Sequence record: PQ666540
DNA: 64,000 nt
Source of the DNA: Shigella phage sb2
Reading direction: 5' to 3' (one strand)
Part shown: positions 63,254-63,799 of the stretch, in pieces
Position numbering within the stretch: the first letter of the stretch is position 1
Layout of the letters: every line of letters starts with the position of its first letter
Program-made: the position numbers and the translations under genes
Notes under the pieces: generated by a model
Told to the model about the DNA's origin: nothing
The model's database searches: none
Seen by the model: only the letters and a program-made list of their open reading frames with translations

Positions 63254-63799
63254 TTAGTCATTTACTATTTCCAAAAGTTTATTATTTTTAAGGTAGTTAG
63301 CCTTTTCTAGGACTTCAGAAGCATATTTAGAACCTGCTTTAACATTCCATCCCGAATTATAAGAGGATATTGCTTTTCTTATATCGCCCTTATGTATATT
63401 TAACCAATAAGAAAGTTCAATGTACGCCCAGGAAGCTGAATTGGATCGTTTATTCAACATTCTTTTTATTTCAGCATCGGTCATATTATAACCAAGTTCC
63501 TTAACTCTCGCTCGCATAGTAGGCAAATAATTTTGGAACATTCCATAGGCATGATGCTTTGGTTTAGATTTTAAATTAACTCCGGCAGAGCTTTCTTGCC
63601 ACAAAATAGCAGCCAGTATATGACCTAATCCGCTCTTGTGGATATTTTTGTGTGTTTTATATTTTCCATCCTTAGAAAATTGTTCCCCGAATTGATATGC
63701 GTAACGCATGTTATCGAGTTGGACATTACTGAAAGTATGCTCGGAGCTATGCGCCATCATTGAAATGGCCAATAGACCAGCGAGTAGTGCTTTTCTCAT
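63254..63799 (-). CDS. secreted lytic transglycosylase (SLT domain)
   Basis: 181 aa, signal peptide MRKALLAGLLAISMMAHS, catalytic-region motif LWQESSAG...YGMFQ. Confidence 0.6.
   Translation of the reverse strand: MRKALLAGLLAISMMAHSSEHTFSNVQLDNMRYAYQFGEQFSKDGKYKTHKNIHKSGLGHILAAILWQESSAGVNLKSKPKHHAYGMFQNYLPTMRARVKELGYNMTDAEIKRMLNKRSNSASWAYIELSYWLNIHKGDIRKAISSYNSGWNVKAGSKYASEVLEKANYLKNNKLLEIVND

Follow-up and report, generated by a model that had tools for sequence, protein, structure and literature searches.

The vs.1 gene of Shigella phage sb2: a probable early, exported lytic transglycosylase of the SLT family

The vs.1 gene and its genomic setting

This report concerns an open reading frame (ORF) in the DNA of Shigella phage sb2 (sequence record PQ666540), analysed as a stretch of 64,000 nucleotides that is referred to here as the window. 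The ORF lies on the minus strand at 63254..63799, comprises 546 nucleotides from an ATG start to a TAA stop, and encodes a protein of 181 amino acids that begins MRKALLAGLLAISMMAHSSEH. The source genome is that of a Tequatrovirus (T4-like), and bases 62000-64000 align with hundreds of T4-type phages at 95-99% identity. The ORF is the ortholog of T4 gene vs.1, and a real gene rather than a chance reading frame. Its product is of equal length to T4 Vs.1 (NP_049725 / UniProt P13311) and identical to it at 179 of 181 residues (99%), the two substitutions being M62L and G72A, and the phrog_600 profile covers residues 1-178 (full length) with E=6.8e-69. Nucleotide matches to the whole ORF were obtained in 656 records, and tblastn homologs of the protein in 2015 phage records. 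T4 gene order is also conserved in the window: on the minus strand, regB is followed by vs.1, vs, tk.4, several small ORFs, tk, rI.1 and rI. The gene and its upstream border are formed by the following features:

63254..63799, minus strand: vs.1 coding sequence (ORF list, identity to T4 Vs.1, synteny, phrog_600 and Pfam SLT)
63805..63808, minus strand: Shine-Dalgarno sequence GAGG of vs.1, 5 nucleotides before the ATG; it overlaps the stop codon of regB, TGA at 63807..63809
63807..64000, minus strand: 3' portion of regB, truncated where the window ends (identified from the Ec_MI-02 and T4 annotations)

Valerie et al. annotated the T4 ribosome-binding site at the same place as this GAGG, and the ribosome-binding site and overlap geometry are alike in T4 and in the window. 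The order regB-vs.1-vs is common to T4, Ec_MI-02, S16, KP179 and JK32. Aeromonas phage avDM3 has regB and then vs.1, but without vs directly downstream, and Acinetobacter phage AB-Navy1 keeps vs.1 followed by vs.

The gene and its SLT resemblance were already known, since at least 2006, when Nolan et al. described marginal Pfam SLT matches in all six vs.1 orthologs then available, corroborating earlier-reported PSI-BLAST matches of T4 vs.1 (PMC1524935). Several GenBank records name vs.1 orthologs 'transglycosylase SLT domain-containing protein'. Many GenBank and UniRef orthologs are labelled 'endoribonuclease', 'RegB domain-containing' or 'site-specific RNA endonuclease'; Pfam and PHROGs revealed no RegB similarity in the vs.1 product, and these labels seem to have been carried over by mistake from the adjacent regB. 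No functional study of vs.1 was found in the literature.

SLT family membership and the predicted active site

The vs.1 product matches Pfam SLT (PF01464) over residues 60-154 with 24.6 bits (gathering cutoff 21.3; E=2e-5), and 47 of 74 family representatives match the same model individually, the best with E=1.6e-10. A family profile scanned against 1.84 billion cluster representatives recovered 361 proteins at E<=1e-3, nearly all of 150-210 amino acids, and Vs.1 therefore falls in a small, divergent, single-domain clade. Cluster look-up showed its distant members to be metagenomic sequences plus one Morganella phage, and all members that carry a name are phage proteins. NCBIfam holds no family for Vs.1, and a tblastn search of plasmids found no relatives at E<=1e-3, so that no link to the transglycosylases of conjugative systems is visible.

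Residue conservation was read from three alignments: A1; A2, formed by 17 homologs including those of Ackermannviridae, Felixounavirus, Pseudotevenvirus, Acinetobacter and Aeromonas phages; and A6, formed by the 74 family representatives (22% mean column identity). In the Blackburn and Clarke classification, family-1 lytic transglycosylases carry the motifs E-S, G-L-M-Q and A-Y-N-x-G and a Tyr. Their counterparts in Vs.1 are listed below, with reference where applicable to EtgA, the lytic transglycosylase of the enteropathogenic Escherichia coli (EPEC) type III system:

63587..63601, minus strand: motif I, W-Q-E-S-S, residues 67-71 (E69 codon GAA at 63593..63595)
63533..63547, minus strand: motif II, Y-G-M-F-Q, residues 85-89, counterpart of G-L-M-Q
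63350..63364, minus strand: motif III, S-Y-N-S-G, residues 146-150, counterpart of A-Y-N-A-G, aligned with EtgA 'AYNAG'
63323..63325, minus strand: motif IV, codon of Y159, the C-terminal Tyr, aligned with EtgA 'QYA'

The Glu-Ser signature of motif I is thus present as E69-S70, where helix 59-70 of the AlphaFold2 (AF2) model ends. E69 and Y159 are invariant in all three alignments. Among the 74 representatives Y147 and G150 are also invariant, and conservation reaches at least 90% at S70, G73, G86 and S146. G86 and Q89 do not vary in A1 or A2, and in A6 G86 is nearly invariant; the 17 sequences of A2 are invariant at Y147, N148 and G150 as well. Motif II is a variant in this family, in which F or W replaces M. 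E69 aligns opposite the catalytic Glu of MltE ('IES', E64), Slt70 ('QES') and EtgA ('NES'), and the 74-member profile matches EtgA (E=1.9e-6) with AIAW-x-ES and its E69, xYNAG and the C-terminal Tyr (Y159) in register. Against the Protein Data Bank (PDB), profile A1 gave only a weak match to the C-terminal part of goose lysozyme. The AF2 model of the vs.1 product has a mean predicted local distance difference test (pLDDT) score of 83 and is disordered only at the N-terminal 20 residues and in loop 71-90; its predicted fold is alpha-helical and lysozyme-like, and Foldseek returned weak E-values with probabilities near 1. From the profiles and the predicted model, membership of Vs.1 in the SLT superfamily, or glycoside hydrolase family 23 (GH23), is well supported. 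The first-pass annotation, made from the letters of the window, had read an SLT enzyme from QESS and YGMFQ in this ORF. The ORF and both motifs were recovered at exactly the positions given above, the profile search placed the protein above the Pfam cutoff, and the catalytic Glu on which that reading depends is in place.

GH23 includes both transglycosylases and hydrolases, and the fold alone cannot decide which of the two Vs.1 is. Vs.1 might accordingly be a hydrolytic muramidase similar to goose-type lysozyme, or another GH23 glycosidase, with the same export and timing. This is unlikely in view of the set E-S / G-x-x-Q / x-Y-N-x-G / Y, which is that of the family-1 lytic transglycosylases. 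Goose-type lysozyme and the Ralstonia GH23 chitinase are hydrolases with additional catalytic carboxylates, whereas Vs.1 has no conserved Asp there. D60, the second catalytic Asp of EtgA, precedes the motif II Gly by two positions; the equivalent position of Vs.1 is A84, and Ala is nearly invariant there in the T4 clade. The beta-hairpin region likewise contains no invariant Asp among the 17 homologs. The motif set and the lack of a conserved second carboxylate favour a predicted lytic transglycosylase over a hydrolase.

Within the lytic transglycosylases, Vs.1 differs from the better-known members in several respects. It shares 13-17% identity with E. coli Slt70, MltC, MltE and MltF, carries G-M-F-Q where these enzymes have G-L-M-Q, and is devoid of accessory domains and of a lipid anchor. 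Compared with these E. coli enzymes, it also has an additional helical segment at the N-terminus (residues 23-58), in which Q27 and G38 are family-specific invariant residues. Single-domain lytic transglycosylases specialised for secretion systems include IpgF, IagB, VirB1 and P19 besides EtgA. EtgA-type enzymes are tied to such systems, whereas the neighbours of vs.1 are phage early genes with no secretion-system genes nearby; with these neighbours and with A84, Vs.1 was rejected as a member of the EtgA type.

Export signal, timing and proposed action

Upstream of the catalytic domain, the N-terminus of the vs.1 product has the form of a secretion signal:

63746..63799, minus strand: predicted Sec/signal-peptidase-I signal peptide, residues 1-18, formed by charged MRK, a 13-residue hydrophobic core (ALLAGLLAISMMA) and the cleavage site AHS/SE (the slash marks cleavage)

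The signal was scored by a heuristic that looks for two N-terminal basic residues, 13-16 uncharged residues in a row and a small residue at each of positions -3 and -1, together with a hydrophobicity scan. The pattern is found in 17/17 homologs, including those of Ackermannviridae and Felixounavirus, despite free turnover of the sequence itself, with cleavage sites such as VHA/SQ in CBA120, SYA/VD in AYO145A and VYA/GP in avDM3. AF2 pLDDT is <60 across residues 1-20. Vs.1 thus carries a predicted cleavable Sec-type signal, removal of which would leave a mature protein of 18.8 kDa with an isoelectric point of ~9.7. A lipoprotein was rejected because the protein has no Cys. A signal-arrest-release (SAR) endolysin was also rejected, since the hydrophobic region (h-region) falls short of the length of a SAR anchor and a cleavage site is present.

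In T4, vs.1 RNA belongs to the early class, with onset within 4 min, and the protein, detected by mass spectrometry, to the middle class, with onset at 5-8 min (PMC9697503). The regB gene has a typical early promoter (PMC3014915), and of the mapped middle promoters, the closest to vs.1 are Pvs.7 on its upstream side and Ptk.3 on its downstream side (PMC2988021). In the window, 7 nucleotides separate the regB stop from the vs.1 start, no terminator-like site was found between the two genes, and vs.1 is most likely co-transcribed with regB. Directly upstream of vs.1 in the window there is no convincing sigma-70, MotA-box or late promoter, and the promoter scan counted fewer sigma-70-like sites than expected from shuffled sequence; the timing of vs.1 therefore rests on the T4 literature. 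The late motif TATAAATA is absent from the coding strand between 60926 and 64000. Its only occurrence on the minus strand in 58000-64000 is at 60925, before rI.1 and rI and just downstream of tk, a position that fits late expression of the antiholin gene rI.

In three myovirus lineages the vs.1 homolog lies among early/middle genes and never in the structural block. The Felixounavirus homolog follows rIIA and rIIB and has its own annotated sigma-70-like promoter, and the Ackermannviridae homolog follows the gp46/gp47 nuclease genes. The only lysis gene near a homolog is an Rz-like spanin gene in Felixounavirus, ~1.2 kb downstream, with two genes and an annotated terminator in between. The first-pass annotation had described a secreted enzyme, made early, in a gene far from the late lysis genes. 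Secretion agrees with the heuristic signal call, and early synthesis is borne out through orthology, by the T4 expression classes and by the position 7 nucleotides after a gene with an early promoter. The distance from lysis genes does not hold, as the lysis genes of T4 are dispersed: rI (60374..60667) is 2.6 kb downstream of vs.1, and the endolysin (lysozyme) gene e of T4 is ~4.2 kb upstream, past the window end.

Two recent genome-wide T4 screens suggest that vs.1 is mildly important for fitness. CRISPRi-ART classed the gene as 'Semi-Fit' (score 0.81, Kolmogorov-Smirnov p 0.099; PMC11879866 supplement) and counts it among the genes whose function is entirely unknown (PMC11879866). In the transposon mapping of HIDEN-SEQ (bioRxiv 10.1101/2025.11.20.689424), vs.1 is non-essential, with 46/52 TA sites hit, and after liquid competition its insertion counts are ~8-30-fold below those of its neighbours regB, tk.4 and vs.3. 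The HIDEN-SEQ comparison of LB with M9 medium, in which vs shows the strongest M9 effect, gave the following values (mean count in LB; log2 fold change in M9; adjusted p):

vs.1: 22.6; -0.87 (p=0.0055); 0.155
vs: 26.6; -2.19; 0
regB: 179; +1.17; 0.80
tk.4: 290; -0.07; 1.0
vs.3: 652; -0.06; 1.0

We consider it likely that the vs.1 ortholog encodes an early, exported, single-domain SLT/GH23 lytic transglycosylase that serves as an accessory peptidoglycan remodeller. The gene would be transcribed with regB from the early promoter, probably with additional read-through from the middle promoter Pvs.7, and the protein would appear at ~5-8 min, as in T4. Vs.1 would then be exported via Sec, its 18-residue signal peptide would be removed by cleavage after Ser18, and the basic mature protein of ~18.8 kDa would be active in the periplasm of the infected cell. 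There it would cut bonds between N-acetylmuramic acid (MurNAc) and N-acetylglucosamine (GlcNAc) in the host sacculus. E69 would be the sole acid/base catalyst, and the expected product a 1,6-anhydroMurNAc end. Vs.1 would be neither the endolysin (gp e) nor the tail lysozyme (gp5), but a dispensable accessory factor that confers a modest gain in fitness, most likely because peptidoglycan is loosened or remodelled in a controlled way as infection proceeds. The analysis and the T4 publications show orthology, family membership by sequence and predicted fold, conservation of the catalytic motifs and of the export signal, and the expression timing and fitness class of the T4 gene. We infer export, activity, type of product and physiological role, and a role in cell-wall remodelling, one of those raised by the first-pass annotation, is plausible. 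E. coli can withstand some increase in periplasmic lytic-transglycosylase activity (PMC10139938), so that an exported enzyme made early in infection need not lyse the cell. If this is correct, T4-like, Vi1-like and FelixO1-like phages have all kept a predicted exported early cell-wall enzyme, whose role bears on the question of whether sacculus remodelling by large virulent phages begins long before the host is lysed.

Several observations weigh against a remodelling transglycosylase. The resemblance to mainstream SLT proteins is marginal, the Pfam score being ~3 bits above the cutoff. A phmmer search of PDB sequences with the vs.1 product found no match, and hhalign of A1 against the single sequences of MltE and Slt70 was not significant (E 0.15-0.22), with E69 in register. 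A second acidic residue, the family-specific E128 (codon 63416..63418, in the WAYIELSYW helix), is invariant in the 17 homologs and is Asn in MltE; it may have a structural or a catalytic role that the proposed mechanism does not explain. The signal-peptide call depends on a home-made heuristic and not on a predictor of the SignalP type, and a search of the literature found no enzymology, localisation or clean mutant of Vs.1. Finally, polarity on vs, which lies downstream and is translationally coupled, could account for both screen signals, because the insertions lie upstream of vs and blocked translation of vs.1 could reduce that of vs.

Among the other roles that may be proposed for an exported muralytic enzyme, that of an auxiliary lysis factor, i.e. 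a second secreted or SAR-like endolysin acting at the end of infection, would agree with the predicted export and activity and with the proximity of rI and of T4 gene e, and 'some role in cell lysis' was proposed by Nolan et al. (PMC1524935). We give it little credence, as transcription is early/middle with no late promoter and the h-region of 13-16 residues with its AxA-type cleavage site is unlike a SAR anchor. In the T4 transposon library, insertions in e and t are almost absent, whereas vs.1 is freely hit. The homologs also lie outside lysis cassettes in every lineage sampled, with a spanin gene nearby only in Felixounavirus. With its expression class, dispensability, short h-region and lack of a lysis cassette, Vs.1 was rejected as a canonical or SAR endolysin.

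A role in conflict, with the enzyme activity as a tool for superinfection control (raised by the first-pass annotation as well) or envelope counter-defence, appears improbable too. It would suit early synthesis, when superinfection control is set up, and the CRISPRi-ART authors count vs.1 among the unknown genes that possibly hide such biology. The HIDEN-SEQ preprint (bioRxiv 10.1101/2025.11.20.689424) recently gave the T4 gene tk.4 the name AdfM, for a factor that counters DarTG2, and vs.1 is thus located in an accessory region rich in counter-defence genes. However, two HIDEN-SEQ comparisons revealed no defence-specific depletion of vs.1 (in one of them, K-12 against the clinical isolate CFE299, the rows covered end before this gene), the known exclusion genes of T4 (imm and sp) are others, and no mechanism connects peptidoglycan cleavage to exclusion.

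A catalytically silent peptidoglycan-binding or decoy protein, which might for example titrate host inhibitors of lysozymes or transglycosylases, is very improbable. The activity of Vs.1 is so far a prediction from its sequence, and the E. coli periplasmic inhibitors Ivy and MliC act on transglycosylases, but all the catalytic motifs are invariant down to 22% mean column identity, which is the signature of a selected active site. A virion-associated or DNA-entry enzyme, such as T7 gp16 or PRD1 P7, is the least credible reading, as Vs.1 is a small stand-alone protein with a predicted cleavable export signal, is expressed early/middle and is encoded in non-structural regions in three lineages. 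Both phiKZ gp144 (endolysin/virion protein) and T7 gp16 are late proteins, virion-borne or for lysis, without a Sec signal, whereas Vs.1 is early/middle and predicted to be exported. As a stand-alone protein of 181 amino acids with a signal peptide, encoded outside structural regions, Vs.1 was rejected as a virion-associated hydrolase. T4 DNA entry uses gp5. The role in DNA entry that the first-pass annotation had raised is unlikely because Vs.1, which belongs to no structural protein or module, would be exported from an already infected cell, and because T4 relies on gp5 for this step.

The neighbouring gene vs and other features of the region

The gene directly downstream of vs.1 is disrupted in the window:

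62921..63261, minus strand: vs, disrupted here (alignments with T4, Ec_MI-02 and ESh26)

The T4-type start of vs, ATG at 63259..63261, overlaps the vs.1 stop, and the frame meets a TAG at 63211..63213 after 16 codons. A long ORF restarts at ATG 63241 and encodes 106 amino acids without a signal-like N-terminus. The frameshift is a 1-nucleotide deletion near 63214/63215, atop a common 6-nucleotide in-frame allele. Among 501 related phage records, not one matches the 101-nucleotide stretch around it exactly, and an exact search of IMG/VR for the junction returned nothing. The frameshift is either a private mutation, in which case vs is a real knockout, or a sequencing error.

In T4, vs (5387-5734 of the T4 stretch compared) likewise starts within the end of vs.1 (AAATGACTAA), and a block of vs.1 translation could lower that of vs. 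Adjacent to vs.1 in most of the T4-like genera sampled, the gene overlaps or abuts the vs.1 stop in T4, KP179, S16, JK32 and AB-Navy1, and is two genes away in RB43. The N-terminus of T4 Vs, MTKILVLCIGLISFSASASA/DTSY, has the textbook form of a signal peptide. Homologs were compared from Tequatrovirus, other Tevenvirinae, Krischvirus, Pseudotevenvirus and Acinetobacter phages; nearly every one, across seven genera, has a variable, signal-like N-terminal segment that ends in A-x-A, the exception being the homolog of S16, which as annotated begins inside a hydrophobic stretch. C45, C86 and C97 of Vs are invariant and C39 is present in most homologs. AF2 predicts a confident four-helix bundle over residues 22-112, with Cys pairs at two helix hairpins and a disordered N-terminus. 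Sequence and model together suggest that Vs is an exported, disulfide-bonded protein, a reading that fits badly with the label 'valyl-tRNA synthetase modifier', as valyl-tRNA synthetase (ValRS) is a cytoplasmic enzyme.

We tentatively raise the possibility, which we regard as rather doubtful, that Vs.1 and Vs form a conserved two-gene periplasmic module, in which the enzyme is accompanied by a small, disulfide-stapled, four-helix partner or regulator. In the T4 transposon data, vs and vs.1 share low counts in liquid competition and a further loss in minimal medium, unlike their neighbours. If the pairing were true, the ValRS-modifier label would be incomplete, or would stem from a wrong ORF assignment or a post-lysis artefact, and the 50-year-old question of the function of the vs product would be reopened. 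Three points speak against a functional pair. T4-like gene order is broadly conserved anyway. Marchin, Neidhardt and co-workers reportedly obtained genetic evidence that links vs to ValRS in vivo. Lastly, vs is frameshifted here while vs.1 is intact, and a genuine frameshift would rule out Vs as an obligatory antidote to Vs.1.

Further downstream, the window contains two other features of note:

62445..62924, minus strand: macro-domain gene (Pfam Macro, E=3.7e-8), the ortholog of T4 tk.4
61885..62285, minus strand: segment between tk.2 and tk.3 with ~360 bases more than T4

The additional segment holds two small ORFs, of 58 and about 68-75 amino acids, both of which are annotated in Ec_MI-02; the product of the second is Cys-rich (CEKCEW...CNDEMACDFDYWCYCSNKGC). 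Among the homologs of vs.1, that of RB43 (2303..2935 of the RB43 stretch compared) has an insertion of ~35 residues after the signal peptide and before the conserved domain, and two unrelated ORFs lie between it and the vs homolog.

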